A DNA stretch of 64,000 nucleotides from an uncultured bacterium. Its GTDB lineage: Bacteria; Patescibacteriota; Minisyncoccia; Phycocordibacterales; UBA11359. Location of the stretch: contig CAIKZC010000001.1 in NCBI GenBank assembly GCA_903831815.1, positions 149,502-213,501 of the forward strand, in the 5' to 3' direction. Of the stretch, positions 23,099 to 60,666 are shown in pieces. The first letter of the stretch is position 1, and every line of letters begins with the position of its first letter. Below the pieces are notes generated by a model. It did not search any database and had not been told where the DNA came from. It worked only from the letters and a program-made list of their open reading frames with translations. The translations under genes were made by a program, and so were the position numbers.

Positions 23099-23107
23099 AA
23101 CAAAATG

Positions 23108-23180: not shown

Positions 23181-23325
23181 GTAGAAACAATACTATCACA
23201 CGTACATAAAAATAACTAGCAAAAAAACAGTTAATTTGGCTAATTTCTTCGAGAGAATTCTAAAGGACATTCCTAGTCAGAGAAATGTCCTTTAGAAAAT
23301 CCCAGTGACCTATTGCAAAAACCTA

Positions 23326-24232: not shown

Positions 24233-24352
24233 AAATATCCAACTGAATATTTATCAATCGATTATACAGAAAAATCAGAAAAACACAAAATCAGTTCGCC
24301 AAATATTTATTCATTTTGGTTTTTTGACAATTTGCGCTATGATTGTGTTACT

Positions 24353-24424
24353 GCACCCGTCGTTCAATGGATAGGACAATAGTCTTCGGAACTATTGATG
24401 TGGGTTCGATTCCTGCCGGGTGCA
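24353..24424 (+). tRNA. tRNA-Arg (anticodon UCG)
   Basis: Hand fold: acceptor GCACCCG/CGGGUGC, D-arm GUUC/GGAC, anticodon stem AUAGU/ACUAU with loop CUUCGGA. The T-arm GUGGG-UUCGAUU-CCUGC has two G-U pairs. Confidence 0.75.
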
Positions 24425-24483
24425 CAGTAAAAATCGCTTTTATTTAGCGATATCTTAGTAGATAATAAAGTCGCACCAAGCAA

Positions 24484-43125: not shown

Positions 43126-43536
43126 TTATATAGCCGTCGAACCGATTCCAATAATAGAATCGATTGTGCCTAGAGTTTGGCCAATCGGAGAACAACTTGG
43201 TGGCACCGTGGGCACTGTTTGTTGGCAAGATATTGGAGTCGGAACGTAAGAACCAAGGACTTGGGGGCCTGACTTCCAAATATTATAATTTGCGCGAACC
43301 AAAGAAGTTAGCGGATTGTAAAAAAAACTCTCAGGACTTCCTGCCGCAGATTTATCAAGAACTGTTATCATCGTTCCCGGATTGTAATAGCATGTACAAT
43401 ACACAACGTTAATTATCGGACCTCCGTAATATACGCCAACTGCCTTAGCTACTTTTCTCGGAAAAGGATATAAAAGACTGACTATTGCGACCACAACGGT
43501 AAGAATGCAAATAAATGAAATAATAATTTTTTTCAT
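43126..43536 (-). CDS. Small secreted Cys-containing protein (136 aa) with a signal peptide
   Basis: The N-terminus is MKKIIISFICILTVVVAIVSLL. On the coding strand TATCTTAAGATAGTGTAACCCT lies immediately upstream of the ATG. Confidence 0.55.
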   Translation of the reverse strand: MKKIIISFICILTVVVAIVSLLYPFPRKVAKAVGVYYGGPIINVVYCTCYYNPGTMITVLDKSAAGSPESFFYNPLTSLVRANYNIWKSGPQVLGSYVPTPISCQQTVPTVPPSCSPIGQTLGTIDSIIGIGSTAI

Positions 43537-43560: not shown

Positions 43561-44328
43561 TTATTGATTGCGCGGGTCCAGCGCTTTGTTATGAATAATA
43601 TTATTTTGCGCTGAAATTTTGTCTAAAATATCGGATGAAACATTGCCGGCGATGACGAACATCGGGAAGTCAGCTCGCGTATCGCCATATTGGTCGCCAA
43701 CCCAAACCATCACAGCTCCGCTAATGTTCGGAACAACCGCGTCAATTTCAGTTGCGCTAACTTTAGTAAAATTCGTCGCATCAGTATCGCCGAAATGAAC
43801 ACTTGGCGTTCCATAAAATTTTCCATTTATAATCAGGATGTCACCGACCGAAATGGCGACTTTTGACACAGCCGAGATGAGAGGCATTTTATTTTGGTTG
43901 GCCGTAGTTTGATTGGAATTATTTTGATTTGTCTGCGCCGGAACGTTAGACGAAATATTATTTGTCGACGCGATCAAAGAATTAATCTTTTTAATCGTAG
44001 CCGGACCGACAAAACCGGTCGGGGAGGCGAGCCCGGAAGGCGTTAGTATCTCCGATTGAAATTTATTTTGAAAACGCATCACTGCATTTTTGGTCAATGC
44101 GCCAAAATATGTACTTTCATTTCCAATCGAGCCAAGTCCTGAAACAGCGATCTGCGTATCGGCGCTTTTATTTAAAAATTTTTGCAATTGCAAGACATCT
44201 TGACCGCTATCGCCGAGTTTTAAGTTTCTAACGAAATAATTCATCGAGATATTTTGTGCAGAAACTTCCACAGCAATAAAACAAATTATTCCTATCGTTA
44301 TTATTCTAAAAACTTTATTCATAAACAT
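43561..44328 (-). CDS. Secreted protein with a peptidoglycan-binding (PG_binding_1-like) domain
   Basis: It has a signal peptide followed by LKLGDSGQDVLQLQKFLN...YFGALTKNAVMRFQ, which matches the PG-binding helical repeat. Confidence 0.55.
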   Translation of the reverse strand: MFMNKVFRIITIGIICFIAVEVSAQNISMNYFVRNLKLGDSGQDVLQLQKFLNKSADTQIAVSGLGSIGNESTYFGALTKNAVMRFQNKFQSEILTPSGLASPTGFVGPATIKKINSLIASTNNISSNVPAQTNQNNSNQTTANQNKMPLISAVSKVAISVGDILIINGKFYGTPSVHFGDTDATNFTKVSATEIDAVVPNISGAVMVWVGDQYGDTRADFPMFVIAGNVSSDILDKISAQNNIIHNKALDPRNQ

Positions 44329-44352
44329 ATAATACCATGATACAATATATAA

Positions 44353-45300
44353 ATGTTACCGAGTAAGAGAACGGCAATCATATTGGCAATCCTGATTGTG
44401 ATCTTTGGCGGTTTTTTCGTCTATAGTTACACTAGAAATTCAACCACAAATTACACTAACACCAACAGTAATGCGCTCGTGGTTGCGACATCAACATTTA
44501 GTGTCGACAGCAGCGCCGCAAAAATAGATAGCGATAATGATGGTCTGCCTGATTGGGAAGAAGCTCTGTATGGCACAGACGCGCATAACCCTGATACCGA
44601 CGGCGACGGCACACCCGATGGAAAAGAGGTCACTCTTGGTCGCAACCCTTTAGTAAAAGGGCCAAAAGACTTGGTTAATCCAGACAATTCCGCCGATAAT
44701 TCTACGTCGACAAAAGAAAATCTGACACCAACCGACGTATTTGCTCGCGATTTTTTTGCTCAATACGTGAACTTAAAGGAATCCGGGGTGACCGTTACGG
44801 CTGATAATGCCAGTCAAATAGCCAGTAATTACCTAAAAAACGCTCCGCTTCCGACCATTCAGGCCAAACAATACACCACTAACGACATAAAAATTGTTGA
44901 AAACACGCCGGCCGGTCTTAGTGGTTATCAAGAGGCTTTTATCGCGGATTTTACCAAAAATTGGCCAAATGACCCTAATAATAACGAGATGTTGGTGCTT
45001 AAAAAGACATTTGGAGACAACAATCCGAGTGCCATCGACGGCCTTTCGGGTATTATTACCATTTACGAGAGAGCTCTCAACACTTTTTTGCTAATTCAAG
45101 TCCCAAGATCGGCGGTTACCCAGCACTTAAGCGTTCTAAATTCTTTAAGTACTTATATTCAGACTTTAAAAATGATCCAATCCGCATTTACGGACCCGAT
45201 GAGCGGTTACGTAGCCCTAAATTCATTCATGACAAACCAATCCAATCTGATCATCAGCATGGCCAATCTCAGAATCTTTCTTATCAACAGTTTGAAGTGA
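44353..45300 (+). CDS. Membrane-anchored hypothetical protein with thrombospondin-type-3-like Asp-rich calcium-binding repeats
   Basis: It has an N-terminal TM helix, then DSDNDGLPDWEE...DTDGDGTPDGKE. Confidence 0.5.
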   Translation: MLPSKRTAIILAILIVIFGGFFVYSYTRNSTTNYTNTNSNALVVATSTFSVDSSAAKIDSDNDGLPDWEEALYGTDAHNPDTDGDGTPDGKEVTLGRNPLVKGPKDLVNPDNSADNSTSTKENLTPTDVFARDFFAQYVNLKESGVTVTADNASQIASNYLKNAPLPTIQAKQYTTNDIKIVENTPAGLSGYQEAFIADFTKNWPNDPNNNEMLVLKKTFGDNNPSAIDGLSGIITIYERALNTFLLIQVPRSAVTQHLSVLNSLSTYIQTLKMIQSAFTDPMSGYVALNSFMTNQSNLIISMANLRIFLINSLK

Positions 45301-45363
45301 TTTTTATATAGCTCTTAAAAATATTTCGGTATATAATAAAGGGGTCTGGCTTCTAAAAAACCA

Positions 45364-47028
45364 ATGTCATTAAAAGTACATTTTAAAAAATACCAAAAAT
45401 GGCAAGCGGTTATACTTGTTATATGTTTTATAACAGTACCTTTGGCAACTTTAACGATAATTCCAGAAAAAGCACAGGCGACATGTATGCCTGCGCCAGC
45501 GATCACGACTTACAATCCGGCGACAGTGCCGGTTAGTGAGTCGATGGATATTGCATACGTCACTCAAAAGCAATATGAGTCTCAAATTTATTACAAAACT
45601 TGCGTTTCGGACGGCATCGCCACGATCATCGGCAAACAGATCATAAAAGCACTTACGCGAAGCATTGTGCAATGGATAAATTCCGGTTTCAAAGGCAACC
45701 CCTCATTCATTCAAAATCCGGGAAAGTTTTTTACAGGCATCGCTGACAAAGTTGCGGGAAATATTATCGAAAGTATCGCACCATTTCTGTGTAGTCCTTT
45801 CAGATTAAATATTCAATTTGCTTTATCTATGGGAGTTTCAGCTCCGGGCGATGATATCAGTTGTACTTTTTCCGATGTTCAAAATAATATACAAGATTTT
45901 GCCAACAATACTAAAAGTCAGGCAAATAATTGGCAAAACTGGTTTCAAATCACGCAAAATCCTTCAAACAATCCTTACGGTGCGATAGCGATGGCACAAG
46001 GTAAAATGAATATCGGTATTTCAAGCGCCAACGGTGAGCAAGCACAGATGCTCGGATGGGGTAGTGGATTTTTGAGTTCCGAAGAATGTCCTTCCGATAC
46101 TCAATCAGCAGCTGAAGCGGCATATCACACCAATAATCCAAATGACAGACAAATATATGATGCAAAAAATCAACCGGTTTATGGCGTACAAGTTGGTGAC
46201 AATAATTGTTTGATCAAGACACCTGGTGCCACGATCGAACAAGGGCTTAGCGACAACATCGGTAGCGACTTACGCGGACTGGAAATCGCTCAAAGCATCG
46301 ATCAAATTTTTGCCGCTCTCGTCGGTCAACTTATGACACAAGCCCTTGGTGCCACCGGTTTGTCACATTCCGGAAGTTACAGTTCATCTGGTAATACAAG
46401 TCCTTACGGCGGAGTTAATAACAACATAAATTATCCTATTAGCGGTTCATGTACTCCGGATAAATTTACTGCAGATATCGGCGAACCTGTAACATGGAGC
46501 GTGTTTGTCGCTAATGCAAATCAAGATGATACATATATGTGGAGTGGGGACGAAGTTCCGACAAACGCCGATCAAACGCTTCCAAACATCACCATGTCAT
46601 ATGCTTCAAGTGGTACAAAAAACGCCGGTGTACTTGTAACTTCTTTGAATGGTGGAAATATCGATACACAAACCATCAGCTGCGTGCCCGCCGTCGTTAT
46701 AAAAACCACTCAAGCTGCATCTTCAACCATTCCGTCGCAGCCATCAGCACCATCGTTAACTTGTGCTCCGACAGCTAGCACGACAACAAGAGTTAATGGC
46801 CAAGCTAGTGTTACCTGGACAGCCACTTTGAATAATGCGCCGGCAGGTACGAGCTTACTTTATGACTGGACACTAAATCCGGGTCCAAGTGAAGTAAATA
46901 TCGTGAACCAATCCAATACTCTAACTCATATTTATACCGGAACCGGTTGGAAAAATACCCACGTCACAGCTCACGGAGACGGAAAAGTCTACGATGCGCC
47001 AAATTGTAGCGTATATATCTCGTCTTAA
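45364..47028 (+). CDS. Secreted or anchored hypothetical protein (554 aa), the first gene of the T4SS-like cluster
   Basis: It has an N-terminal signal/anchor and Cys pairs, with no recognizable catalytic motif. Confidence 0.5.
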   Translation: MSLKVHFKKYQKWQAVILVICFITVPLATLTIIPEKAQATCMPAPAITTYNPATVPVSESMDIAYVTQKQYESQIYYKTCVSDGIATIIGKQIIKALTRSIVQWINSGFKGNPSFIQNPGKFFTGIADKVAGNIIESIAPFLCSPFRLNIQFALSMGVSAPGDDISCTFSDVQNNIQDFANNTKSQANNWQNWFQITQNPSNNPYGAIAMAQGKMNIGISSANGEQAQMLGWGSGFLSSEECPSDTQSAAEAAYHTNNPNDRQIYDAKNQPVYGVQVGDNNCLIKTPGATIEQGLSDNIGSDLRGLEIAQSIDQIFAALVGQLMTQALGATGLSHSGSYSSSGNTSPYGGVNNNINYPISGSCTPDKFTADIGEPVTWSVFVANANQDDTYMWSGDEVPTNADQTLPNITMSYASSGTKNAGVLVTSLNGGNIDTQTISCVPAVVIKTTQAASSTIPSQPSAPSLTCAPTASTTTRVNGQASVTWTATLNNAPAGTSLLYDWTLNPGPSEVNIVNQSNTLTHIYTGTGWKNTHVTAHGDGKVYDAPNCSVYISS

Positions 47029-47031
47029 TAC

Positions 47032-49488
47032 ATGAAAAAACTTTTTGTCACATTTTTCATAACTCTCGCTTTAGCCGGATTTGGTGTGCCGAAATTTGTT
47101 TTAGCGATGGGTCTAACTGATCCGGGCACAGGTCAATCAATATTTATCACCACTCCTCCAGAATCTGGGGTCCAAGTTCCGGTTGGACAAAATAACGTTA
47201 ACGTATCCAATGCCAGACTAAATTATCAACAAGTTATGTCTGACCCAAATGCCACTGATGCGGATAGGGAACGAGCCAGACTTCAATTGGGGGTAAATCA
47301 ATCAATGGCAGACAATAGTAATAATTGCGGCGCTATAGATATCTACTGCAACATTCTTAATCTCTTTTATTTTGTTGTCTCTCTCGTAGGCAATTTTGTT
47401 CTGGAACTTACTTCATGGTTACTGTGGGCTAGCGGAGTACTTTTAAACATGACCGTTGTCCAACTGGTCGTCAACATGAAAAACGTGTTAGAAAAAATAA
47501 CCGTTATTTATTCTTCATGGACTATACTCCGAGACTTTGCCAACATGTTCTTTATTTTTATTTTGTTGGTCATTGCTATTCAAACAATACTTCAAACCGG
47601 AGATTACAAAAAACTTTTAACGAGAGTGGTTTTGGTGGCGTTGTTCATAAACTTCAGTTTCTTCTTTACGGGAGTAATGATCGATTTTTCAAACACATTA
47701 GCATTGTTGTTTTACAACGGGTTCACCAGCGGTCAAAACTGTGGATCGATCGAAAATATGGATGGATGTCTTAGTTTGACTATTGTTCAACAAATGAAAC
47801 TTACAACGCTTTTTATACCACCTGTCGGGGCAGCGATGGCAACCTCAAGTGCAAGGGTAGTGAAAGATTTAGCCAGTTTTTCCAGTTTCTTGATAAGGGT
47901 AGTTCTTGGGTCATGGCTCATGATCGTTGTGGCTGGAGTATTTTTAGCTTCCGCCGTATTAATCATATACAGATTTGTGACTCTATTGATGCTTTTGATG
48001 TTTTCACCACTGGCATTTGCGGCAAAAATTTTACCCAACACCGAAAAATATTGGAAAAAATGGTGGAATTTACTGACCACGCAATTAATTTTTGCTCCGG
48101 TTTATTTTATGTTCCTTTGGATCACCATGAGGATAATCACCAGCGGAACATTGTCGAGCGCTTTGAATATTGATGGAAATTCCAACTTTGGAAACGCTTT
48201 TTCCGGAAATCCAACCAGTCTTTTTGGACTGACTGTAAATTATATTATCGTTATTTCCTTGCTTGGCTTTAGTTTGAAATTGGCAAGCGAACTTGGCGCT
48301 AGCGGAACAGAAGCTGCAGGTAAATTATCCAAAGGTTTGACGGGAACGATTGGAGGGTGGCTAGGTAAACACTCTTATGGCCGCTTAGCTGAAAACCTTG
48401 ATAAAAGATGGCAAAAAAAGACTGGTTTCATGGGGGGGACTGGATTTATTGGCAGTCACCTAAGAAACGTTACAACTAAACCGGCAATGAAGGCGGATAT
48501 GGGCTTTGGATCATGGGAAGATCGACAGAAATCTGAAAAAGAACGTCTCAAAGCAAACGCTGAGCAAATCAGAAAAAATAAAAACCAATCAACATATGAG
48601 ACCGGTATAGCTGCACTTGAAAATGCCCACCCTCCAATTGAGCCAGCACCCCTTCTCCCTGGGGCTTCAGCTGCAGATACAACACGATTCAATAGTGAAA
48701 TGTCCGCATACAATGCTTATCAAAAACAAATTCAGGATTTGGCAGATTTGGTACAAAAATCAAGCACTAAGGATTTGACTGAAATGAAAGCAAATGATAT
48801 CGAAAAGCTGGCAAATGCAGGAATGCTTATGTCTAATCAAGTTTCAGCTATTTTGGATGATAAGAATGAAAAGCATAATAGTGCTGAGAAAGATTCGATC
48901 CGAGAAAGTTATTCCGCAAAAGCTAAAACGGCGGTGGAAAAGTATCTCACAGATCCAACTAACCAAAACCTTGAACGCGCTGCAAAATCTGCAATTGGCG
49001 ACTTGGGCGAAGATGGAATAAAACTAATTAGTCCAAATCTAACCAGTGGCAAAGGAAGAACATCCGAAACAATTATTCAGATGTCTTCAGGAAAACAATA
49101 TCAGGAAATACTTAAGAAGACGTATGGGGATGGCAAAAAGATCATTAGAGACGCAAGATTTAAACCCCTAATCGATCCGTCATCAACAATAGAGAAAAAC
49201 TTAAAGCAGTTAGGTTCACTTGACGGAGCAGATCTTGCTTATCTATTTAAAAATGCAGCCCCTGGTTCTGCTTATGACACAACTATAAACCAATTATTAA
49301 ATGACCCTGGAATAGTTGATGCTTTGGAACCGGCAAAACTTGCAAAAGCTGTTGAAGAAGGACTCGATTCAACAAATTCTCAAAAGATTAAACAAGCGAT
49401 AACAGACCATGCAGCAGCGATAGGAAGAGGGAGATTGTCGCCAAAGCATAAAAAATTAATTGATTGGATGAGACATACCGCATTTTAA
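47032..49488 (+). CDS. Large polytopic membrane protein (818 aa), VirB6/TrbL-like T4SS channel component candidate
   Basis: It has a signal peptide, at least 6 TM helices in the N-terminal half and a roughly 400-aa soluble C-terminal domain. It sits in a cluster with the PrgI-like and VirB4 genes. Confidence 0.45.
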   Translation: MKKLFVTFFITLALAGFGVPKFVLAMGLTDPGTGQSIFITTPPESGVQVPVGQNNVNVSNARLNYQQVMSDPNATDADRERARLQLGVNQSMADNSNNCGAIDIYCNILNLFYFVVSLVGNFVLELTSWLLWASGVLLNMTVVQLVVNMKNVLEKITVIYSSWTILRDFANMFFIFILLVIAIQTILQTGDYKKLLTRVVLVALFINFSFFFTGVMIDFSNTLALLFYNGFTSGQNCGSIENMDGCLSLTIVQQMKLTTLFIPPVGAAMATSSARVVKDLASFSSFLIRVVLGSWLMIVVAGVFLASAVLIIYRFVTLLMLLMFSPLAFAAKILPNTEKYWKKWWNLLTTQLIFAPVYFMFLWITMRIITSGTLSSALNIDGNSNFGNAFSGNPTSLFGLTVNYIIVISLLGFSLKLASELGASGTEAAGKLSKGLTGTIGGWLGKHSYGRLAENLDKRWQKKTGFMGGTGFIGSHLRNVTTKPAMKADMGFGSWEDRQKSEKERLKANAEQIRKNKNQSTYETGIAALENAHPPIEPAPLLPGASAADTTRFNSEMSAYNAYQKQIQDLADLVQKSSTKDLTEMKANDIEKLANAGMLMSNQVSAILDDKNEKHNSAEKDSIRESYSAKAKTAVEKYLTDPTNQNLERAAKSAIGDLGEDGIKLISPNLTSGKGRTSETIIQMSSGKQYQEILKKTYGDGKKIIRDARFKPLIDPSSTIEKNLKQLGSLDGADLAYLFKNAAPGSAYDTTINQLLNDPGIVDALEPAKLAKAVEEGLDSTNSQKIKQAITDHAAAIGRGRLSPKHKKLIDWMRHTAF

Positions 49489-49493
49489 TCAAT

Positions 49494-50252
49494 ATGAATG
49501 AAATAACCCTTAAACAAAAAATATTAAACTCTCCAGATGATATAAAACAAATCATCAACTCTTTTGATATTGCCGATTTTATTGACATGTTGACCACAAA
49601 ATATAAACTTTCCGAAGATCAATCTGGTAAAGTTTGGGATGAAATTATTTATGTTTTAGTTGGTTTATCAAAAAAATCTGATTTAACGAACCGAGTTGCT
49701 GCAATAGGAATTCAGCAAAACATTGTTGGAAATATCGTGAAAGCAATTGATGAAATAATATTCAGCAAAGTTAGGATTAGTTTGGAAAAAATTCAGTCAA
49801 CTATTTCTAATGATGCAAAAGTTGCGACTGCACTACCAACCACATCAACTCCATCACACGAAGAAGAGAATATAAACATGAATGATGTTTTAGCGGAAAT
49901 AGAAAATCCGACACCCACGAAACCGGCCGTGCAAAATCCGATAGGGAAGAATGTTATTTTGGATGCCCAACATAATCTGCCGGAGCAGGAAAAGAAAGTA
50001 TTAATCGGCAGCTCTGCTGTGCCTTCTCGCGGACCGATGCTTGGAAATTTTAAAGTTCAACCTATTTCTCGACCAATTCAACCTGTTTCTCAATCAATAC
50101 AGCCTATAATTCCTGTCACACCACCTCTGCAACCGACTCCGCAACCAGTTCAAGCGCCGAAAGCACCTCAGGCTCCATCAGCTCCAGCTCCATCGGTTCC
50201 AAAAGCCCCGAGTAAATATACTGTCGATCCGTACCGCGAGCCGTTGGAGTAA
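49494..50252 (+). CDS. Hypothetical protein with a Pro-rich C-terminal tail. The start is set at MNEITLKQ.
   Basis: The C-terminus is PIQPVSQSIQPIIPVTPPLQPTPQPVQAPKAPQAPSAPAPSVPKAP. Confidence 0.45.
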   Translation: MNEITLKQKILNSPDDIKQIINSFDIADFIDMLTTKYKLSEDQSGKVWDEIIYVLVGLSKKSDLTNRVAAIGIQQNIVGNIVKAIDEIIFSKVRISLEKIQSTISNDAKVATALPTTSTPSHEEENINMNDVLAEIENPTPTKPAVQNPIGKNVILDAQHNLPEQEKKVLIGSSAVPSRGPMLGNFKVQPISRPIQPVSQSIQPIIPVTPPLQPTPQPVQAPKAPQAPSAPAPSVPKAPSKYTVDPYREPLE

Positions 50253-50271
50253 TTTGTGATACAATATAAAA

Positions 50272-50682
50272 ATGCGATATCAAGTTCCCCAATTTATTGA
50301 AATCGAGGACAAGATCTTTGGACCACTTACGATCAAGCAGTTCGTATATCTCGCTGGCGGGGCAGCACTGTCATATCTCGTCTATGCGCTTTTGAGTCCA
50401 TATTTGCCATTTTTTATCGTTATCATTCTGATGTTACCGACCGCCGCATTTGGTGTGGCGTTGGCATTTTACAAGATCAACAACAAACCGTTCATCAACG
50501 TCGTTGAAGCTGCCATAAAATATTATATCGGAAGTAAATTGTATCTTTGGAAAAAAGAGGCCAAACAAGTCACGAAACAGGAAGTCACTGCATCTGCAAA
50601 CGCAACAATAGTTCCAAAACTGGCCGACAGCAAGCTTAAAGATCTGGCCTGGAACCTAGATATTTCGGAGAAAAAAATATAA
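50272..50682 (+). CDS. PrgI-family (VirB3-like) small membrane protein of a Gram-positive-type T4SS
   Basis: The N-terminus MRYQVPQFIEIEDKIFGPLTIKQFVYLAGG is followed by two TM helices, matching the PrgI family from memory. Confidence 0.6.
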   Translation: MRYQVPQFIEIEDKIFGPLTIKQFVYLAGGAALSYLVYALLSPYLPFFIVIILMLPTAAFGVALAFYKINNKPFINVVEAAIKYYIGSKLYLWKKEAKQVTKQEVTASANATIVPKLADSKLKDLAWNLDISEKKI

Positions 50683-50696
50683 AATTAACCAACATT

Positions 50697-51338
50697 ATGC
50701 CCGTATCAGCCAAAGCAACACAAGATTTTGTTCCCATCAAAGAAATTCGTGATGGTGTAGTTATTTTGAAGGATGGATCGATGCGATCCATTTTGTTGGC
50801 TTCATCACTCAACCTGGCCCTAAAATCCGCCGATGAACAACAAGCTATCCTCATGCAATTTCAAGATTTTCTTAACTCCTTGGATTTTTCCGTACAAATT
50901 TTTGTTGAATCTCGCCGTTTAGATATTCGACCGTACATGGCCCTTCTCGAACAGCGATATAAAGAACAAACAACGGATCTAATGAAACTGCAAACGCGAG
51001 AATATATTGAATTCATCAGGAATTTTACGGAAAGCGTCAGTATTATGACCAAAAGCTTTTTTGTGGTCATTCCTTATATGCCTCCGATTCTTACGAGCGG
51101 CAGTAGTTTAAATATTTTGAGCAAGAAAAAGAGCACTGCCGCATCAAAAGTTTTAGATGCTACGGCTCAATTTGAAGAGAATCGTAGCCAATTGGATCAG
51201 CGTATTTCGGTTGCCGAACAAGGTTTAATGCGATGCGGGATCAGAGTCATAAAACTAGGAAGCGAAGAAATGGTTGAGCTTTATTACAAACTGTTCAACC
51301 CCGGTGAGACCGAGAAACCTATCCAACTAAGCAATTAA
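50697..51338 (+). CDS. Protein resembling the extreme N-terminal region of VirB4/TrbE ATPases; possibly a split-off VirB4 N-domain
   Basis: VPIKEIRDGVVILKDGSMRSILLASSLNLALKSADEQQAILMQFQDFLNSL parallels the conserved VirB4 N-terminus (for example, TrwK TIISTKNAEYLSVWKIDGRSHQSASEADVFQWIRELNNTL). It ends 1 nt before the VirB4 ATPase ORF, in a different frame. Confidence 0.35.
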   Translation: MPVSAKATQDFVPIKEIRDGVVILKDGSMRSILLASSLNLALKSADEQQAILMQFQDFLNSLDFSVQIFVESRRLDIRPYMALLEQRYKEQTTDLMKLQTREYIEFIRNFTESVSIMTKSFFVVIPYMPPILTSGSSLNILSKKKSTAASKVLDATAQFEENRSQLDQRISVAEQGLMRCGIRVIKLGSEEMVELYYKLFNPGETEKPIQLSN

Positions 51339-51339
51339 T

Positions 51340-53175
51340 ATGGGAATTTTAAATAATTTATTCGGCAATAAAGATAGCGCTCCGATTCGAACGGCTCTGC
51401 CTCAAGAGTTGTACGATTCGAGCGCGCTAGAACTCAAAGACATCATCGCGCCATCTGCTCTCAAAGTTTCTCCTCGAGAACTCAGTTTGGGTGACAAGAT
51501 AGTCAGAACTTTTTTTGTCATTTCCTACCCAAGATTTTTGGCGGAAAGTTGGTTTTCGCCGATCATCAACCTCGATAAAGCTTTCGATATTTCCATTTTT
51601 ATTCATCCGATTGAAACCGCAAAAATCCTCCGACAATTTCAAAAGAAAGTTGCCGAAGTCCAAAGCCAGATCCAGGTCAGGGCAGACAAGGGTTTGGTGC
51701 GTGACCCGATGCTTGATACGGCCTATCAGGATCTGGAAGATCTACGCGATAGACTTCAACAGGCTCAAGAAAAACTTTTTGATGTTGGTCTTTATATTTC
51801 CATTTACGGCAATACCACCGACGAGTTGGACAAAGCCGAGTCGGAAATCAAATCGATTTTGGAAGCAAAGTTGGTCTATGTAAAACCGGCCCTCTTTCAA
51901 CAAGAGCAGGGTTTCAACAGTATCGCTCCAATTTGCACCGATGTATTACAAGTGCATTCAAAACTAAATTCATCTCCGCTTTCCAGCCTTTTCCCATTTA
52001 TTTCCTTCGATCTTACTTCAGAGAAGGGGATTCTATACGGCGTCAATCGCCACAATTCAAGTCTCATTTTATTCGATCGCTTCTCGCTCGAAAACTACAA
52101 CTCGATCATTTTCGCAAAATCCGGTTCCGGAAAATCCTACATGACCAAGCTGGAGATTCTACGTACATTGATGTTTGACGTTGATGTAATCGTCATTGAT
52201 CCGGAAAAAGAATACGAAACTATGACCGAGGCCACTGGCGGAAAATATTTCAATATTTCTCTAAACTCCGACAACCACATCAACCCATTTGACCTGCCAC
52301 TCCCTGGAGAAGATGAGTCCAGCGCCGATGTCCTAAGATCCAACACGATCCATCTGGTCGGGCTATTCCGAATTATGTTGGGCGGACTTTCACCGGAAGA
52401 AGACGCAATCATCGACCGCGCCATCACTGAAACCTATGCACTCAAAGACATTACCCCTGAATCAAATTTCACCAATACCGAACCGCCGCTAATGTCCGAC
52501 TTTGAAATGGTTCTAGGTGGCATGCAGGGTGGGGAATCGCTAGCGCAGCGCCTCACTAAATACACCAGAGGCACTTGGTCCGGTTTCATTAACCAACCAA
52601 CCTCCGTTGATATCAACAATAAGTTCGTGGTCTTTTCTCTACGAGACATGGAAGACGAGCTGAAAACGGTGGCAATGTATATTGTCACTCATTATATATG
52701 GAATGCCGTGCGTCGAGTTCATAAAAAACGTTTGCTTGTTATTGATGAAGCTTGGTGGCTCATGAAATCCGAAGACACTGCCTCTTTCCTTCTAAACATG
52801 GCAAAACGCGGACGTAAATATTTCCTCGGACTCGCAACGATCACTCAGGACGTCGACGACTTTTTGAATTCTCCTTACGGTCTTCCGATTATCACCAACT
52901 CTTCAATCCAAATTTTGCTCAAACAATCTCCAACCTCGATGGATAAGTTACAACAAACATTTAATCTTACTGATGAAGAAAAATATTTGTTGTTGGAATC
53001 AGATGTGGGAGAGGGGATCTTCTTTGCCGGCTTGAAACACGTAGCTATAAAAGTTATTCGTTCGTACACCGAAGACCAGATCGTCACTTCCGACCCTTCA
53101 CAAATTCTTTCAATCAAAAAAGCTAAAGAAGATCTCGAAAAAGCCGGAACAAATACCACTACTAGCGGTCAATAA
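51340..53175 (+). CDS. virB4: VirB4/TrbE/CagE-family T4SS ATPase
   Basis: It has the Walker A AKSGSGKSY, the Walker B LLVIDEAWW and the conserved YP...WF N-domain block. 213 + 611 aa gives the usual ~800-aa VirB4 length. Confidence 0.85.
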   Translation: MGILNNLFGNKDSAPIRTALPQELYDSSALELKDIIAPSALKVSPRELSLGDKIVRTFFVISYPRFLAESWFSPIINLDKAFDISIFIHPIETAKILRQFQKKVAEVQSQIQVRADKGLVRDPMLDTAYQDLEDLRDRLQQAQEKLFDVGLYISIYGNTTDELDKAESEIKSILEAKLVYVKPALFQQEQGFNSIAPICTDVLQVHSKLNSSPLSSLFPFISFDLTSEKGILYGVNRHNSSLILFDRFSLENYNSIIFAKSGSGKSYMTKLEILRTLMFDVDVIVIDPEKEYETMTEATGGKYFNISLNSDNHINPFDLPLPGEDESSADVLRSNTIHLVGLFRIMLGGLSPEEDAIIDRAITETYALKDITPESNFTNTEPPLMSDFEMVLGGMQGGESLAQRLTKYTRGTWSGFINQPTSVDINNKFVVFSLRDMEDELKTVAMYIVTHYIWNAVRRVHKKRLLVIDEAWWLMKSEDTASFLLNMAKRGRKYFLGLATITQDVDDFLNSPYGLPIITNSSIQILLKQSPTSMDKLQQTFNLTDEEKYLLLESDVGEGIFFAGLKHVAIKVIRSYTEDQIVTSDPSQILSIKKAKEDLEKAGTNTTTSGQ

Positions 53176-53177
53176 TC

Positions 53178-53888
53178 ATGGAACCAAATACGCCTCAACC
53201 AGGCAGAATAGCTCCAAAAGCGTCTTCGATGTCTGCAACACAAAACTTCGGAGGCATTCAAAAAGCACTGCATCAATTGCCGGAACAAACTAAAGCAGAT
53301 ATAGACAAAGGTTTTGCCAAAATGTTAAGTCCGGCAACTGGTATGGCAGTAAACGCCGGCAAGTCAAAGGATGTTGAGATTGCCGTTACAAACAGAAATA
53401 AATTAAATGATTTCGCAAAAAACCGCCAAATGGGCGGAAACATGGAAATCCCATCTTCAGAAAAAAGACTGACCCCATTCGGACGGGTCGCATTTATTGG
53501 ATTTGCCGCCTTGGTTGATGCCACAGAATTTGTTCTCGACGGTTTTGCTGTAGGAGTAGTAGTTAACCGAATCATAGACATGACCGTCGGTGCAATTTTT
53601 TTAGCATATTTTTTTTACAAAGGACTTTCTATTGCGGACAACTCATCTGTCTTTGGATCAATCATCGGCACAATCGCCGGTGAATTTATTCCATTGGTCG
53701 ATATTGCACCTTTTTTCGCACTAGATGCATGGTATATAACTCGTGCCATAAAAATGAAAGATAAAGCCAATCAAACGGCAATTGATTCGGAAGTCAAAGC
53801 CGTAATTGAAGAACAACAACGTCAGGCATGGATTCAAAACTATCAAGAACAAAATATGATGGAACAAGCAGAAGAACTGGAAGAATAG
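53178..53888 (+). CDS. Membrane protein (236 aa), unknown T4SS-cluster component
   Basis: It has 3-4 TM helices in the central region and an acidic C-terminus. Confidence 0.5.
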   Translation: MEPNTPQPGRIAPKASSMSATQNFGGIQKALHQLPEQTKADIDKGFAKMLSPATGMAVNAGKSKDVEIAVTNRNKLNDFAKNRQMGGNMEIPSSEKRLTPFGRVAFIGFAALVDATEFVLDGFAVGVVVNRIIDMTVGAIFLAYFFYKGLSIADNSSVFGSIIGTIAGEFIPLVDIAPFFALDAWYITRAIKMKDKANQTAIDSEVKAVIEEQQRQAWIQNYQEQNMMEQAEELEE

Positions 53889-53916
53889 ATGTTAATAATG
53901 GTATAATAAAATAGAC

Positions 53917-54951
53917 ATGTTTAGATATCTAAAAATAAATATTTTTATCTTTTCACTACTTTTTTTAAGTATTTTTTCTTTTAATTTTTACGCTAATGCC
54001 CAGTCTGCCCAAGAAATTATCAATGGGGTGCAAAACAATATCCAGATCTCTCTCAGTCCTCAATACCCCAAAGCAGGGGATATGGTGAACGTTCATTTGG
54101 AAAGTTACAGTACTTCGCTTAATGCCGCAAAAATTTCATGGATGATTGGAGGAATTGTGCAAAAAAGCGGATTTGGTTTGGTTGATTTCTCCACAAAAGC
54201 GGGATTAGTTGGCAGTGTGACTAAAGTAACTGCTCAGATCGTAACATCCAATGGATCAACGGTTGAAAAAACAATCACAATCCAACCGGTTGATATAGAT
54301 ATTTTATGGCAAGCCACATCTTATGTGCCGCCATTTTATCAAGGAAAAGCTTTATACCCTCATCAAGGGTTGATTACTTTAACGGCAGTGCCAAATGTTT
54401 CGGCAAACGGCAATATCGCGAAATCAATCGGTTCGTATATTTATACTTGGAAAAAAGACGGCGATGTCCTCGGTGATTTTTCGGGTTATGGCAAAGACAC
54501 TTTTACTCTGAGAGGCACGATCATATCTCGACCTTTTACGATCGAAGTTGATGTCAGTTCAACCGACGGCGCTTCTCTCGGTTCCGCAAGCGTTCTCGTA
54601 AACCCACAAGTTACGCAAGTCGCTTTTTATGAAAAAAATCCATTGCTTGGTGTTTTATATAACAAAAAACTTTCGAATTTCACAATGACCGGAAAGGAAC
54701 TTACCATCTCCGCTGCGCCATTTTACTTTAATACGGGCAGCGAGCCGGCCAATTTGCAATATCTCTGGTCAATGAATGGCAATAGTATCACTTCGCAAAA
54801 CGATCCATCACTTATTACCGTTCGAAACACTTCAGGAGTAAGCGGCAGTGCCACAATTGGACTTCAAGTCAGCAATCTCCTAAAATCTTTGCAATTTTCT
54901 TCAAATTCAATGACGGTAACCTTTGGTAAAAGTAACCAATCCAGTATATGA
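53917..54951 (+). CDS. Secreted hypothetical protein (344 aa) with a signal peptide
   Basis: The N-terminus is MFRYLKINIFIFSLLFLSIFSFNFYANAQS, followed by beta-rich repeats. Confidence 0.5.
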   Translation: MFRYLKINIFIFSLLFLSIFSFNFYANAQSAQEIINGVQNNIQISLSPQYPKAGDMVNVHLESYSTSLNAAKISWMIGGIVQKSGFGLVDFSTKAGLVGSVTKVTAQIVTSNGSTVEKTITIQPVDIDILWQATSYVPPFYQGKALYPHQGLITLTAVPNVSANGNIAKSIGSYIYTWKKDGDVLGDFSGYGKDTFTLRGTIISRPFTIEVDVSSTDGASLGSASVLVNPQVTQVAFYEKNPLLGVLYNKKLSNFTMTGKELTISAAPFYFNTGSEPANLQYLWSMNGNSITSQNDPSLITVRNTSGVSGSATIGLQVSNLLKSLQFSSNSMTVTFGKSNQSSI

Positions 54952-55370
54952 AACAATTTGTAATTATTTTTTTAATAATAGTTGCCGCGGTTGGCATTAA
55001 GATCAACTTTACATCAGCGGTGGGATGTGGAGGATCGTTAGATTCTAATTCTGGATGTTACCAACCCTTGGCCCCAATAACCGACCCTGAAACACATCAA
55101 ACCCTTACGGCAACTAATTTCCCTGATTATCTCCAAGCAATATATCGTATAGGAATCGGTGTTTGTTTTGCCTTGGGAGTGATCATGTTCACATGGGCTG
55201 GGATTGAATACATCGTCAGTGAAGCTATGAACACCAAAGCTGATGCTAAAAAACGAATGCAAGCGGCACTTATAGGACTTGCTATAGCGCTTGTTTCTTA
55301 TATTCTCCTAAATACGATTAATCCTGACCTTCTGAAATTACAAAATATAAACGTTAGTACTTCACCATAA
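54948..55370 (+). CDS. Small two-helix membrane protein, VirB2/TrbC-like T4SS pilin candidate
   Basis: It has a signal peptide followed by two hydrophobic helices of about 20 aa each, for 140 aa, and sits in the T4SS-like cluster. The call rests on architecture only. Confidence 0.3.
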   Translation: MKQFVIIFLIIVAAVGIKINFTSAVGCGGSLDSNSGCYQPLAPITDPETHQTLTATNFPDYLQAIYRIGIGVCFALGVIMFTWAGIEYIVSEAMNTKADAKKRMQAALIGLAIALVSYILLNTINPDLLKLQNINVSTSP

Positions 55371-55413
55371 TAATGAGGTTATGGTATTGAAGTAATTGGT
55401 AATAAACAAAAAC

Positions 55414-56655
55414 ATGTCAAGAAAATACACAGTCATTTTAATAATAGTTATAGCCGCAATCGTTTTGGCTTTGGGTATTTTCTTACTGTTCTTTACATCA
55501 CCTGCAATCCAAAATACGACAGGACCAAGTTCTAATTCACCATTTGGTAGTTACAACGGGTCATCTTCAACGACACCCATAACTTCTGCAGACGGAAATA
55601 ACTCAACGGCATCATCTTCATCGGATGTTCAATATATTAACAATCCAACCTCTCAACTTCTGAAAATTTCGACCGTGCCAATCGCCGGAGCGGAAGTATT
55701 TGATCGTAAAATTAATGCAACCACCTCAGTTAGTATCGTTAGATATATTGAACGCGCAACAGGTCACACAGACGAATATAACCACTCGACCGGCGCACTT
55801 TCAGCCTCTTCAAACACTACAATCCCGAGTATTTATCAAGCGTGGTGGTCTAGCAACACTGTATTAGCTCAATTCATTGGCCAGAGCAAAGATCTGGTGA
55901 AAACTTTTACAGGTAATTTACCGGCTTCAACCTCACCGGCCACACAACTAATTGGAGGTTTTCTGTCGGATAACATTTCAACGCTTGCGATTTCACCAAA
56001 AGGAAATCGAGTCTTCACGATTCAAAAAGGGGACAGCGCTCTTGGTTATATTTCCAATCTTGATGGTTCAAAAAAGACCTCTGTACTGAATTTCCCATTC
56101 AATGAATGGGTTGCTCAATGGCCAAATGAAAATACGATCACCCTTACCACAAAACCTTCATCTGGCGCGCTAGGTTTTATGTATTTCCTCACAACAGGCG
56201 GCGCAATGACCAAAGCGCTTGGTAATATCACAGGTCTTACCACCCTCACCAATCCAAGCCTAAGTTATACGATTTATTCCTCGTCTCAAAACGGAAGTAT
56301 TTCCGCAGGTATTTATAATTTTAGTAAAAATACATACCAACAATTCACAAGCAATCCTACTTTACCCGAAAAATGCGTTTGGAGTAAATTAAATAAAACA
56401 ACGGCTTATTGCGCCGTACCTACAACAATCCCAAGCGGAAATTATCCCGATGATTGGTATCAAGGCAGCGTTTCTTTCGTCGATAATATTTATAAAATAG
56501 ACATGTCCATACCGACTGTGCAGTTATTGTATCAACTGCCGACAGATCAATCGATTGACGCCATCAATCTATTTCTTGATGCAAAAGAAGAAAATTTGTA
56601 TTTCACCAATAAGAGCGATTACTATCTCTGGGGTTTAACGATCAAAGGTCTTTAG
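55414..56655 (+). CDS. Membrane-anchored hypothetical protein (about 413 aa, Ser/Thr-rich)
   Basis: It has an N-terminal TM anchor, MSRKYTVILIIVIAAIVLALGIFLLFF. Confidence 0.5.
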   Translation: MSRKYTVILIIVIAAIVLALGIFLLFFTSPAIQNTTGPSSNSPFGSYNGSSSTTPITSADGNNSTASSSSDVQYINNPTSQLLKISTVPIAGAEVFDRKINATTSVSIVRYIERATGHTDEYNHSTGALSASSNTTIPSIYQAWWSSNTVLAQFIGQSKDLVKTFTGNLPASTSPATQLIGGFLSDNISTLAISPKGNRVFTIQKGDSALGYISNLDGSKKTSVLNFPFNEWVAQWPNENTITLTTKPSSGALGFMYFLTTGGAMTKALGNITGLTTLTNPSLSYTIYSSSQNGSISAGIYNFSKNTYQQFTSNPTLPEKCVWSKLNKTTAYCAVPTTIPSGNYPDDWYQGSVSFVDNIYKIDMSIPTVQLLYQLPTDQSIDAINLFLDAKEENLYFTNKSDYYLWGLTIKGL

Positions 56656-57393: not shown

Positions 57394-57747
57394 CTACCTC
57401 ATTTTTGCCCTCTTTTCAAGCAAATCTTTGACTTCTTTAACGACTTCCTCGTAAGAAATCTTGGAAACATCAGTTTTTACACCAAAAATCGTCATATGAT
57501 TGGTTTGATTTGAAAAAACACCTCCTTTATCGAGAGTTTCGATAGCTGTATAGACAATTCTCTTGATTCTGTTACGTAAAACGGCCGTTTTAGCTATTTT
57601 TTTAGGTATAGCTACCGCGTAACGACTAGGAAGACTCTCGAGCAACGAGAACGATCTAATCCAAAAATTATGACCATGCAAAACCTTGCCAACTTTGAAA
57701 ACTTGGTCAAATAGGCCTGTAGTTAGCCTTTTTTTCTTTGGAAGCAT
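57394..57747 (-). CDS. rnpA: Ribonuclease P protein component
   Basis: The 117-aa basic protein has the RNR.KR motif (LRNRIKRIVY). Confidence 0.85.
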   Translation of the reverse strand: MLPKKKRLTTGLFDQVFKVGKVLHGHNFWIRSFSLLESLPSRYAVAIPKKIAKTAVLRNRIKRIVYTAIETLDKGGVFSNQTNHMTIFGVKTDVSKISYEEVVKEVKDLLEKRAKMR

Positions 57748-57752
57748 GCTAG

Positions 57753-57887
57753 CTAAACCGTGAGTTTTTTACGCCCTTTTGAACGACGTCGTGAAATAAC
57801 ATTGCGTCCGGTCTTACTGCGCTGGCGGACTAAAAATCCGTGAGTTACGTTTCGCTTTTTTTTCTTTGGTTGATATGTTACTGACAT
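57753..57887 (-). CDS. rpmH: 50S ribosomal protein L34
   Basis: I translated [44 protein letters not shown], 44 aa. It is not in the ORF track because it is under 60 aa. Confidence 0.85.
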
Positions 57888-57991
57888 AAAAATGGCTTAA
57901 TTTGGTTGTTAACAATTTATACACACATTATAAACATATTTTGGCATTATCCACAAGTTCTTAATTTTTCAACAGGTTATATAATAGGTAA
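57888..57991. promoter_or_regulatory. rpmH/dnaA divergent intergenic region carrying a perfect DnaA box TTATCCACA (57947-57955); part of oriC and the dnaA promoter
   Basis: The consensus box is read directly, in the classic rpmH-dnaA context. Confidence 0.6.
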
Positions 57992-59356
57992 ATGCAACCA
58001 ACACAAACACCGGATTACGTAGGTCTCTGGAATAAGGTCCTAACTGAAATAGAACTATCTATTTCCGGCGCTAACTTTAAGACTTGGTTTAGAGACACTT
58101 ACATCGATAGACAGGAAGAGGGGACGGTTTTCCTTGCCGTGCCAAATCCTTTTGTTAAGACATGGCTTTTGGATAAATTTCACAAAACAATTTTAAGATC
58201 TCTCCGAAATTTCGATGAAAATATTCGAGCTATCGAATATCTCATTGTAAAAAATGAGAATAAAGCTAAACCGGAGCAAACTCAACAGAAACAAACTACG
58301 CCCACCAAAGAACTTCCTCTTGCTGATTTCTATATTAACAAAGATGACAACTTAAATCCTCGATACACTTTTGAAACTTTTGTAGTCGGTCCTTTCAACG
58401 AACTCGCTTATGCCGCTTCGCAGGCCATCATCAAAAAACCTGGCGTTGTTTACAATCCACTTCTCATTTACGGCGATACGGGTCGAGGCAAAACACATTT
58501 AATCCAAGCTTTGGGTAATTACATCAAAACAACTTACAAAAATAAAAAAGTTTTTTACTTAACTTCGGAAAAATTTGCCTTAGATTACATCAGTTCCGTT
58601 CATGATCCGCAAAAAGTAAATTCTTTTAAGGAAAAATATCGCAAATATGATGTCTTGATCATGGATGACATCCAGTTTTTGGCCGGCAAGGAAAAAAGTC
58701 AGGAAGAACTCTTCCATCTCTTCAATAATCTATACGACAACAACAAACAGATTATATTTTCTTCCGATAAGCACCCCAACTATATTCCAAACCTTGAAAA
58801 CAGATTGCGCTCACGTTTCGCGGCCGGTATGATCGTCGATATTTCAGCACCGGATCAGGAGTCACGAGCGGCTATTGTAAGAGCTAAAACACTTCTTCAT
58901 AACCTTAATTTAAGCCCTGAAATTATTGATTATATCGCTACCACCGTCGATTCCAACATCCGCGAACTTGAAGGCACTTTAAATTCAATTGTCTGCCAAG
59001 TTGAATTAAAAGGAAAAGATCTGAATATTTCCGATGTTAAAAATATCGTGAAAGGAAGCGCAAAACCAAAAAAGGCGGTCTCAGTTATGGATGTCGTTAA
59101 GGTCGTCGCAGGATTTTATAACATCGAAGAAGACAGTATGTGTAAAAAAACTCGCCACAAAGAGGTAGTGAAACCTCGTCAGCTCGCTATGTATATCTTG
59201 CGAGAAGATTTTAACATCTCTTATCCGACGATCGGTCAAAAAATGGGTGGTCGAGATCACACCACAGTCATTCATTCTTATGAAAAAATAAAAGAGGAGT
59301 TAAAAATTAATAGTATTTTGGCTGAAGAGTTGGCGCAGATCAGATCGATGATTTAG
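57992..59356 (+). CDS. dnaA: Chromosomal replication initiator DnaA
   Basis: It has the AAA+ Walker A GDTGRGKTHL and a C-terminal DNA-binding domain (HTTV...). Confidence 0.95.
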   Translation: MQPTQTPDYVGLWNKVLTEIELSISGANFKTWFRDTYIDRQEEGTVFLAVPNPFVKTWLLDKFHKTILRSLRNFDENIRAIEYLIVKNENKAKPEQTQQKQTTPTKELPLADFYINKDDNLNPRYTFETFVVGPFNELAYAASQAIIKKPGVVYNPLLIYGDTGRGKTHLIQALGNYIKTTYKNKKVFYLTSEKFALDYISSVHDPQKVNSFKEKYRKYDVLIMDDIQFLAGKEKSQEELFHLFNNLYDNNKQIIFSSDKHPNYIPNLENRLRSRFAAGMIVDISAPDQESRAAIVRAKTLLHNLNLSPEIIDYIATTVDSNIRELEGTLNSIVCQVELKGKDLNISDVKNIVKGSAKPKKAVSVMDVVKVVAGFYNIEEDSMCKKTRHKEVVKPRQLAMYILREDFNISYPTIGQKMGGRDHTTVIHSYEKIKEELKINSILAEELAQIRSMI

Positions 59357-59565
59357 TTGTGGATTACTTGTGAATAGGTAGAGGATTGTTTGTTAATATA
59401 AAGTCAAGAAAAAAATTATGAAAAAATATACCCAGATCGGAGATCGAACTTTCCACACTATCCACACAAAGAATTATATTAATAAAGGTTGTTATTCAAC
59501 ACTGTTTACGAGTTACCCACATATCAACAGTCTTAGTAGTAGTAATAATTTTAATATATAAATAT
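59357..59565. promoter_or_regulatory. dnaA-dnaN intergenic oriC candidate: DnaA-box variants TGTGGATTA (59358-59366), CTATCCACA (59458-59466) and TTACCCACA (59513-59521), plus an AT-rich unwinding stretch at 59535-59565
   Basis: The boxes are read by eye, each 0-1 mismatch from TTATCCACA. A near-pure AT run lies immediately upstream of dnaN. Confidence 0.55.
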
Positions 59566-60666
59566 ATGAAAATAGAGTGCACAAAGAATAAACTACTACA
59601 GGCTGTTTCTAAGGTTGAAAAGATCACAAGTAAACATCCAACACTCCCAGTTTTGCGTTGTGTACTTATTGAAGCTAAAAATGGAAATGTAATTTTAAGA
59701 TCAACTAATTTGGAATTGGGGATTGAGGTAAAAGTTCCAGCCAAAGTTTATACCGAGGGTGTGGTGGCTGTGCCGGCTAATATTCTTTATAGTTTTATAT
59801 CTCAAGTCTCCGAGGATGGAAGTGTTGTTTTGGAGGTTTCCGAAAAAAACCTAATTGTTTCAAGTTCGGGAAGTAAAGCGGTGATAAACGCCTATAATTA
59901 TGAGGATTTTCCAACATTACCAGTTGTGCCTAAAGAAAAAACTTTTAAAATTCATGCTAAGGATTTGGTTAAAGGGTTTAAGTCGGTCTGGTATGCCGCT
60001 TCTATTTCGAGCATGAAACCTGAGTTAGCTAGCGTTTATGTTTATGGGGATGAAAGCGAGGTGTGTTTTGTGGCCACAGATTCATTTAGGTTAGCTGAAA
60101 AAAAGATCTATACCAAAAAACTCAGAGAAATTGGGGCGATCCTCATACCATTTAAAAGTGTTATTGAAATAGTTAGGATTATTGAAGATGTATCCGAAGA
60201 GATTGAAGTTAATTTAACTAAAAATCAAATCTCATTCTCTTTTAGCACAACTTACATCACTTCAAGAGTGGTTGAAGGGGTTTTTCCTGATTACAAACAG
60301 ATCATTCCAAAAGAATTTACTACTGAGGTGGTTGTTTTGAAACAAGATATTGTTCAGGCTCTCAAATTAGCAACGATTTTTTCCGATGCTTTTCACCAAG
60401 TATCGATAAAAGTCGACCCAAGCAAAAAACTTTTTGAAATTTCAACAAGAAACACAGAGGTGGGGGAACATGTCCACTCTTTATCTGCCGCTATCTCTGG
60501 TGAGCCTGTTGCGATTAATTTTAATTTTAAATATATCGTTGATTGTTTTCAATCGGTTGAGGCCGACAGTGTTTCTTTGCAGTTTAACGGTCTAAATCGC
60601 CCCATGGTCGTGCGCGGAGTGTCTGATGGTTCGTTTACCTACCTAGTGATGCCAATGAACAAATAA
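59566..60666 (+). CDS. dnaN: DNA polymerase III beta sliding clamp
   Basis: The 366-aa protein has a three-domain clamp architecture and a typical N-terminus. Confidence 0.95.
   Translation: MKIECTKNKLLQAVSKVEKITSKHPTLPVLRCVLIEAKNGNVILRSTNLELGIEVKVPAKVYTEGVVAVPANILYSFISQVSEDGSVVLEVSEKNLIVSSSGSKAVINAYNYEDFPTLPVVPKEKTFKIHAKDLVKGFKSVWYAASISSMKPELASVYVYGDESEVCFVATDSFRLAEKKIYTKKLREIGAILIPFKSVIEIVRIIEDVSEEIEVNLTKNQISFSFSTTYITSRVVEGVFPDYKQIIPKEFTTEVVVLKQDIVQALKLATIFSDAFHQVSIKVDPSKKLFEISTRNTEVGEHVHSLSAAISGEPVAINFNFKYIVDCFQSVEADSVSLQFNGLNRPMVVRGVSDGSFTYLVMPMNK

Follow-up and report, generated by a model that had tools for sequence, protein, structure and literature searches.

A probable core type IV secretion system in the chromosome of a Paceibacteria genome

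Introduction

Type IV secretion systems (T4SSs) and type IV pili (T4P) are both thought to be active in host attachment by the candidate phyla radiation (CPR), or Patescibacteria. These bacteria account for a large part of bacterial diversity and apparently live on other microbes. Their T4SSs were surveyed across 3,035 Patescibacteria genomes by Quinonero-Coronel et al. (2025; PMC12102498). The VirB4 proteins form a monophyletic Patescibacteria clade, nested in MPF_FATA. TrsD is abundant and adjoins VirB4, while PrgI/VirB3, VirB6 and pilins of families PF18895 or PF04956 are encoded near virB4. Relaxases are almost absent, and homologues of the type IV coupling protein (T4CP) mostly lie far from virB4. 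In Paceibacteria, the T4SS site adjoins dnaA, dnaN, rnpA, ksgA and rpmH (PMC12102498). For the Saccharibacteria, the system of Southlakia epibionticum ML1 (SEML1_0006-0019) is essential for epibiotic growth, as determined by transposon sequencing (Tn-seq; Wang et al. 2023, PMC10633639). Here, we analyse a 64,000-nucleotide stretch of DNA from an uncultured Patescibacteria genome (contig CAIKZC010000001.1, positions 149,502 to 213,501). We call this whole stretch the window, and all coordinates refer to it. An original prediction, made from the sequence, proposed a minimal VirB4-centred T4SS in the window and stated that such systems, lacking relaxases, are known from CPR. As outlined above, they are now described in detailed publications (PMC12102498, PMC10633639).

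We conclude, with a probability of roughly 85%, that positions 44353-56655 encode the core chromosomal T4SS of a Paceibacteria genome, serving host interaction and not conjugation. Support for the locus is good, but it is an ordinary example of a kind of system described between 2023 and 2025, and about half of its conserved genes have no assigned role.

Results

Eleven genes in a fixed order

The cluster comprises eleven genes on the + strand, numbered g03 to g13, and spans about 12 kb. The ten open reading frames (ORFs) originally listed at 45364-56655 were all recovered by our ORF scan, on the + strand, and are preceded by g03 (44353-45300). The genes are closely packed or overlapping, and every ORF is intact. 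Base composition is no different from that of the rest of the window, and the cluster has the same GC content as the DNA around it.

To define related loci we used relatives of g09, which encodes the VirB4 ATPase. Scanning one genome per species gave 257 relatives, and the best 80 of these 257 were taken further. All 80 are in Patescibacteria metagenome-assembled genomes (MAGs), mostly of Paceibacteria/Parcubacteria lineages, and are 57-81% identical to g09. The order of genes, established by tblastn and iterative hidden Markov model (HMM) searches, is fixed: ksgA, g03, g04, g05, g06, PrgI, TrsD, VirB4, (g10), g11, pilin and g13. Beyond the 3' end of g13 are yidC and rnpA, on the opposite strand, then dnaA and dnaN; this order is common to about 80 Paceibacteria MAG loci. 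Presence of each gene was counted only among loci covering its position. PrgI (g07, 68/68) and TrsD (g08, 69/69) were always found. The VirB6-like gene g05 was present at 51 of 52 loci, g06 at 64 of 65 and the pilin gene g12 at 63 of 64. Counts were 40/46 for g03, 40/47 for g04, 62/67 for g11 and 57/62 for g13. The variable component is g10, found directly 3' of VirB4 at 27 of 74 loci.

The best identity to g09 among 2052 plasmid records was at most 35%. Note that placement in the VirB4 clade uses identity as a proxy, comparing genome loci with plasmids, and not a tree. Because gene order is conserved, and VirB4 is 57-81% identical to Paceibacteria loci versus at most 35% to plasmids, our data point to a vertically inherited core system. 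This occupies a fixed site beside the replication origin and is not a mobile element.

Could the cluster instead be the non-functional remnant of an integrative and conjugative element, or of a plasmid, after loss of the relaxase and coupling protein? The closest relatives of VirB4, TrsD and PrgI outside the CPR are indeed on Firmicutes conjugative plasmids, and the scanned ORFs of the window include neither relaxase nor T4CP. However, all ORFs and the Walker motifs are intact. Furthermore, the same 10-11 genes occupy the same order and chromosomal site in dozens of divergent Paceibacteria, which essentially refutes decay, and identity of up to 81% between VirB4 proteins from different orders indicates strong purifying selection. 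The cluster also shows no GC shift and is not flanked by an integrase or tRNA target. We consider a decayed element very improbable. In the wider window, a XerC/D-type tyrosine recombinase is encoded at 29948-30973, 14 kb away and not linked to the cluster. Four tRNA genes (Gly-TCC, Pro-TGG, Gly-GCC and Arg-TCG; 22251-24425) do not adjoin it.

The secretion core

The VirB4 ATPase, g09 (51340-53175, 611 aa), has the central and C-terminal P-loop domains. It matches NCBIfam conju_CD1110 at equivalog level (8.6e-114; 381 bits, cutoff 325) and Pfam P-loop_TraG (3e-27). Walker A (AKSGSGKS) and Walker B (LLVIDEAW) motifs, read from the translation, are intact. Immediately upstream, g08 (50697-51338, 213 aa) encodes the VirB4 N-terminal domain as a gene of its own. 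The product matches NCBIfam VirB4_plasma (1e-11) and TrsD/TraD (5e-7), as well as the N-termini of TrbE and Mbov_0397-family proteins; a precomputed annotation assigns PF26593, TraC-like. The g08 family HMM aligns to residues 25-197 of full-length clostridial VirB4 (1.6e-9), and to TrsD of plasmid pSK41.

VirB4 had been described as apparently divided between two ORFs, and this is a real, conserved arrangement. At all 75 related loci that hold both, the ATPase and the TrsD-like part each have an ORF of their own. Spacing between the two varies from -28 to +426 nt, and their relative reading frames differ across these loci. Since the parts are always separate, with variable spacing and frames, the two-gene VirB4 is the native state, as for TrsD and TrsE of pSK41. 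The same observations rule out a frameshifted or pseudogenised VirB4, or a sequencing error.

Three further core components were identified. First, g07 (50272-50682, 136 aa) is a PrgI/VirB3-like protein with two transmembrane (TM) segments, at residues 24-42 and 47-65. It matches Pfam PrgI with an E-value of 8.3e-14 (52 bits; gathering score 27). Second, g05 (47032-49488, 818 aa) is a polytopic membrane protein with 7-8 hydrophobic segments. A profile of the 44-sequence g05 family, compared with the PDB, matches TrwI, the VirB6 protein of R388 (7o3v_F, E=5.3e-5). Pfam TrbL is matched by 4 of the 44 orthologues and by the family consensus (0.0012, covering positions 27-208 of 215). Structure prediction had been suggested for this protein. 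The AlphaFold2 (AF2) model has a predicted local distance difference test (pLDDT) score of 80, a TM bundle at residues ~104-422 and a cytoplasmic helical-repeat C-terminal domain at ~547-815. In Foldseek searches, TrwI chains were the sole specific matches (probability 0.97-1.0; target TM-score, TMt, 0.45). Family profile, orthologue Pfam matches and predicted fold together identify g05 as a putative extended VirB6.

Third, g12 (54948-55370, 140 aa) is a VirB2-like T4SS pilin. It has hydrophobic segments at residues 4-22, 68-86 and 106-124, corresponding to a signal peptide and a pair of hydrophobic helices, and matches Pfam PF18895, T4SS_pilin, at 9e-6 (26.1 bits; gathering score 26.6). This family is matched by 35 of 45 positional orthologues (best 1.4e-15) and TrbC/VirB2 by three of the 45. 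The original prediction had staked its PrgI, VirB6 and VirB2 assignments on HMM searches, and all three are upheld. Pilin length varies: many relatives encode proteins of 190-625 aa (for example L002:13512-14441, L025:5928-7763 and L029:12726-14513), compared with 140 aa in the window. The longer orthologues have a Cys-containing C-terminal extension, or a pilin domain ~250 residues past the signal peptide. A VanY domain is present in one orthologue, and some loci (L034, L078 and L079) have two pilin copies.

Accessory envelope and soluble proteins

Searches of Pfam and NCBIfam, with single sequences and consensuses, gave no T4SS-family match for six of the eleven proteins. This fits a reading that the original prediction had named as its own refutation, in which only the VirB4-like ATPase is real and its neighbours are unrelated membrane and secreted proteins. 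Since PrgI, TrsD, VirB6 and pilin each have independent support, and the eleven genes co-occur in a fixed order, we regard this as extremely improbable.

The first gene, g03, encodes an N-terminally anchored protein (TM segment 7-25) with TSP3 Ca-binding repeats (Pfam TSP3_bac, 1e-9). Its C-terminal domain of ~200 aa is conserved and has no match; profile comparison with the PDB finds Ca-binding repeats only. We also considered g03 as a VirB8-like protein of NTF2 fold. This has no support: hhalign comparison with VirB8/TrwG gave a probability of 0.2%, and the PDB matches were again confined to Ca-binding repeats.

The helical and immunoglobulin (Ig) surface protein g04 (45364-47028, 554 aa) starts with a TM/signal anchor, followed by a helical ectodomain that contains Cys (~63-330), and ends in two Ig/PKD-like domains (~360-554). 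Structure prediction had been proposed for this protein too. Mean pLDDT of the AF2 model is 71; the two Ig domains exceed 90, whereas the helical domain reaches only 50-75, which is moderate confidence. Foldseek matches stem from the Ig domains alone, and the helical domain matches nothing in Pfam or the PDB. By hhalign, g04 has no sequence similarity to TrwJ/VirB5. Orthologues of g04 exchange C-terminal modules, such as F5/8 type C (discoidin) and Big_7. Swapping of C-terminal modules is a pattern typical of adhesins.

Two other proteins have recognizable extracellular folds. The secreted protein g11 (53917-54951, 344 aa) has a signal-like N-terminus and about three Ig/PKD-like beta-sandwich repeats. 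Its profile matches Hoc Ig-like domains (1.8e-5) and PKD, and its consensus matches Ig_3, BiPBP_C and PKD_3. The last gene, g13 (55396-56655), encodes 419 aa from a TTG codon, or 413 aa, as in the original prediction, from ATG 55414. A TM segment (13-31) and a Ser/Thr-rich linker precede a TolB-like (PD40) beta-propeller; the family profile matches TolB structures at 9e-12 and the consensus matches PD40 at 2e-5.

The remaining pair are g06 and g10. Located between the VirB6 and PrgI genes at 64 of 65 loci, g06 encodes a soluble protein of 252 aa (49494-50252), or 262 aa from the TTG at 49464 chosen by the ORF scan; public gene callers and assemblies use ATG 49494. The protein has no TM segment. 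A conserved N-domain of ~110 aa is followed by a disordered tail rich in Pro and, at the C-terminus, by a conserved DPYREP motif that looks like a docking peptide. The small polytopic membrane protein g10 (53178-53888, 236 aa) has a disordered N-terminus and hydrophobic segments at 111-176. In the alignment, the first TM segment contains an invariant Asp (D114). No Pfam match was found for g10. For g06, g10 and the C-terminal domain of g03, searches with single sequences, family members and consensus all failed to detect a Pfam or PDB match.

No hydrolase domain of the wall hydrolases (VirB1-like; TrsG, PrgK or CD419) was detected in g03-g13 using Pfam, NCBIfam and consensus searches. The nearest hydrolase, a LysM and M23 peptidase protein (39101-40069, - strand), is outside the cluster, ~5 kb upstream. 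Because VirB1-like proteins with M23 and LysM domains have been noted in Patescibacteria (PMC12102498), this protein is a candidate wall-remodelling partner of the T4SS.

Boundaries and surroundings

The original prediction linked two upstream genes to the cluster. The link holds for the Ca-binding-repeat protein, g03, described above. It does not hold for the peptidoglycan (PG)-binding protein g02 (43561-44328, - strand), which occurs at 5 of 46 loci and is ruled out as a part of the system by synteny. Similarly, synteny rules out g01, at 9 of 45 loci. Located between ksgA and g02 (43126-43536, - strand), g01 encodes a small, secreted, Cys-rich protein of 136 aa with no family match. A promoter-like site with an extended -10 element is located at 44318-44346, just 5' of g03. 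Promoter and terminator scans of the cluster gave nothing above chance, and Rfam and tRNA scans found no element tied to it.

On the other side, DnaA boxes flank dnaA: one is perfect (57947) and four are near-perfect (57917, 59358, 59458 and 59513). The cumulative G-C skew minimum is at 58997, in the region 57747-59566. Hence, oriC appears to be beside dnaA and adjoins the cluster. Transcription of the 12-kb T4SS operon runs toward the origin and is, therefore, head-on to replication. This orientation with respect to yidC, rnpA and dnaA is kept in related loci; published discussion covers gene dosage only. Across the origin from the T4SS, directly after dnaN, a 322-aa protein (60920-61888, - strand) has an N-terminal prepilin methylation motif (N_methyl, 1.5e-9).

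We scanned all window ORFs of at least 229 aa and several shorter ones. As originally stated, no VirD4/TraG-type T4CP, relaxase or VirB11 was found among these ORFs. The sole VirB11-superfamily ATPase is PilB. Outside the cluster, scanned ORFs are mostly housekeeping or T4P genes (PilB and PilC), and a few have no family match. The separate T4P cluster (3901-9817, - strand) includes a PilB-like ATPase (8006-9817; T2SSE, 3e-122) and PilC (6762-7982; T2SSF). Located 3' of pilB and pilC are ORFs of 153-171 aa and one of 432 aa; the three that were scanned (432, 168 and 171 aa) have no Pfam match.

Likeness to described systems

The cluster has the Paceibacteria arrangement of PMC12102498: VirB4 of MPF_FATA ancestry, a separate TrsD, PrgI/VirB3, VirB6 and a PF18895 pilin. 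Likewise, the window has no relaxase or T4CP in cis, and the site is near dnaA, dnaN, rnpA and ksgA. Nothing essential differs, and each feature of that Patescibacteria clade that we compared agrees with the window. The other neighbours are unannotated there, shown as grey genes. In the present analysis, five or six of these grey neighbours prove syntenically conserved and receive fold assignments: a TolB-like propeller, Ig repeats, TSP3 and a helical protein with Ig domains.

The Southlakia locus shares the order VirB6, PrgI, TrsD-like and VirB4, as well as an extended VirB6 whose C-terminal domain consists of helical repeats. It also has VirB2-like pilins, no recognisable T4CP or relaxase, and a position at the chromosome start (PMC10633639). 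It differs in having a six-pilin array, a pair of large VirB6-like proteins and, following VirB4, a gene for a lysozyme/glucosaminidase, whereas the window has one pilin, one VirB6 and no hydrolase in the cluster. Conversely, the TolB-like, Ig-repeat and TSP3 proteins are in the window but not in Southlakia. Essentiality has been shown for Southlakia only.

Among conjugative systems, Trs of the Staphylococcus plasmids pSK41/pGO1 (MPF_FATA, pGO1 subclass) also has VirB4 as TrsD and TrsE, with a small VirB3-like TrsC upstream. In addition, pSK41 has a TrbL-family protein and the small two-helix TrsB, annotated as CagC family. Unlike the window, pSK41 is a mobile plasmid with a relaxase, T4CP (TrsK), CHAP hydrolase (TrsG) and topoisomerase. 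More broadly, pSK41, pCF10 and pCDC3875 each carry a relaxase and coupling protein, not found in the scanned window ORFs, and family HMMs detect no counterparts of g03, g04, g06, g10, g11 or g13 in these three. The hallmarks of conjugative MPF_FATA systems (pGO1/pSK41, pCF10 and CTn2), namely relaxase with VirD4/TcpA, mobile carriage and a VirB1-like hydrolase, are missing here. We conclude that the cluster belongs to the Patescibacteria T4SS clade, derived from monoderm (MPF_FATA, pGO1/pSK41-like) conjugation machinery. With regard to TrsB of pSK41 (L083, 25115-25432), the RefSeq annotation is CagC family, VirB2-like, and the gene is just upstream of TrsC-TrsD-TrsE. The match between TrsB and the Paceibacteria pilin HMM is marginal (E 0.23). 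To our knowledge, Gram-positive T4SSs are commonly said to be without pilin genes, and the TrsB annotation sits oddly with that statement.

Compared with the Trw/VirB-type system of R388 (7o3v and 8rt9), g05 matches TrwI/VirB6, the pilin is in the VirB2-like superfamily, and the VirB3-VirB4 module is common to both. The window differs in having no outer-membrane core (VirB7, VirB9 and VirB10) and no VirB11. VirB5 and VirB8 are undetectable by sequence, and the host is monoderm. Finally, comparison of g09 with the archaeal Ced proteins gave 40 bits for CedB (cutoff 700) and 21.6 bits for CedD (cutoff 600), below equivalog level.

Discussion

We base the proposed mechanism on the architecture solved for R388 and on Tn-seq in Southlakia. 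Tethered via VirB3 and TrsD, VirB4 would sit beneath a VirB6 platform. From there, it would pull pilin out of the membrane, producing a short pilus or conduit across the wall. The Ig, propeller and Ca-binding proteins may provide a wall-spanning scaffold and the parts that contact the host. The output of such a machine would be host interaction, either protein export or contact and transfer with the host cell, and not conjugation.

A different output, import, has also to be weighed. Like archaeal Ced or Helicobacter pylori ComB, VirB4 and the pilin might take up host DNA or nucleotides for a bacterium unable to make them. The missing relaxase and T4CP in cis, and the weak partial matches of g09 to CedB and CedD, fit with this. 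So do the inability of CPR bacteria to synthesise nucleotides (PMC10633639) and the proximity of T4SS genes to comF, recG and radA in class ABY1 (PMC12102498). However, the CedB match is far below its cutoff and is confined to the P-loop region. Moreover, competence in Southlakia needs ComEC and T4P, and the T4SS is still essential when comEC is dispensable (PMC12857230). Because deletion of comEC removes competence but not viability, as set out in a 2025 FEMS review (PMC12857230), DNA uptake is disfavoured as the essential role. The window also has its own, separate T4P cluster. Overall, we think a DNA-uptake machine unlikely.

Several points weigh against a host-interaction T4SS. As a single sequence, g05 has no Pfam match, and the Foldseek E-value of its model against TrwI is weak (~0.1). 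The window pilin falls 0.5 bit short of the gathering score set by Pfam, and neither a VirB8-like nor a VirB1-like component was detected in the cluster. The view spans 64 kb, so a relaxase could lie beyond the window, and T4CPs are common elsewhere in Patescibacteria genomes (PMC12102498). Finally, T4SS function in Paceibacteria is something that we infer. Our preferred reading, with these points included, is still a core T4SS serving host interaction.

Within that reading, we tentatively suggest a role for the proteins outside the secretion core, although we doubt the idea more than we favour it. Together, g03, g04, g06, g11 and g13 might form a module, not described before, that spans the wall and contacts the host in a monoderm T4SS with a pilus. 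Such a module would take over the functions of VirB5, VirB8, VirB1 and the outer-membrane core; g04 would be its VirB5-like tip adhesin and determine host specificity.

The T4SS of Patescibacteria is the first for which an essential role in the growth of the organism carrying it was demonstrated, in the Saccharibacteria. The locus described here brings no new kind of system; it gives a clean, fully syntenic, eleven-gene definition of the Paceibacteria version. Folds are now given to conserved and formerly unannotated genes, including a TolB-like propeller, an Ig-repeat protein, a TSP3 protein and an extended VirB6. The proteins g13, g11, g03 and g05 offer specific candidates for the envelope and host-contact parts that are missing.

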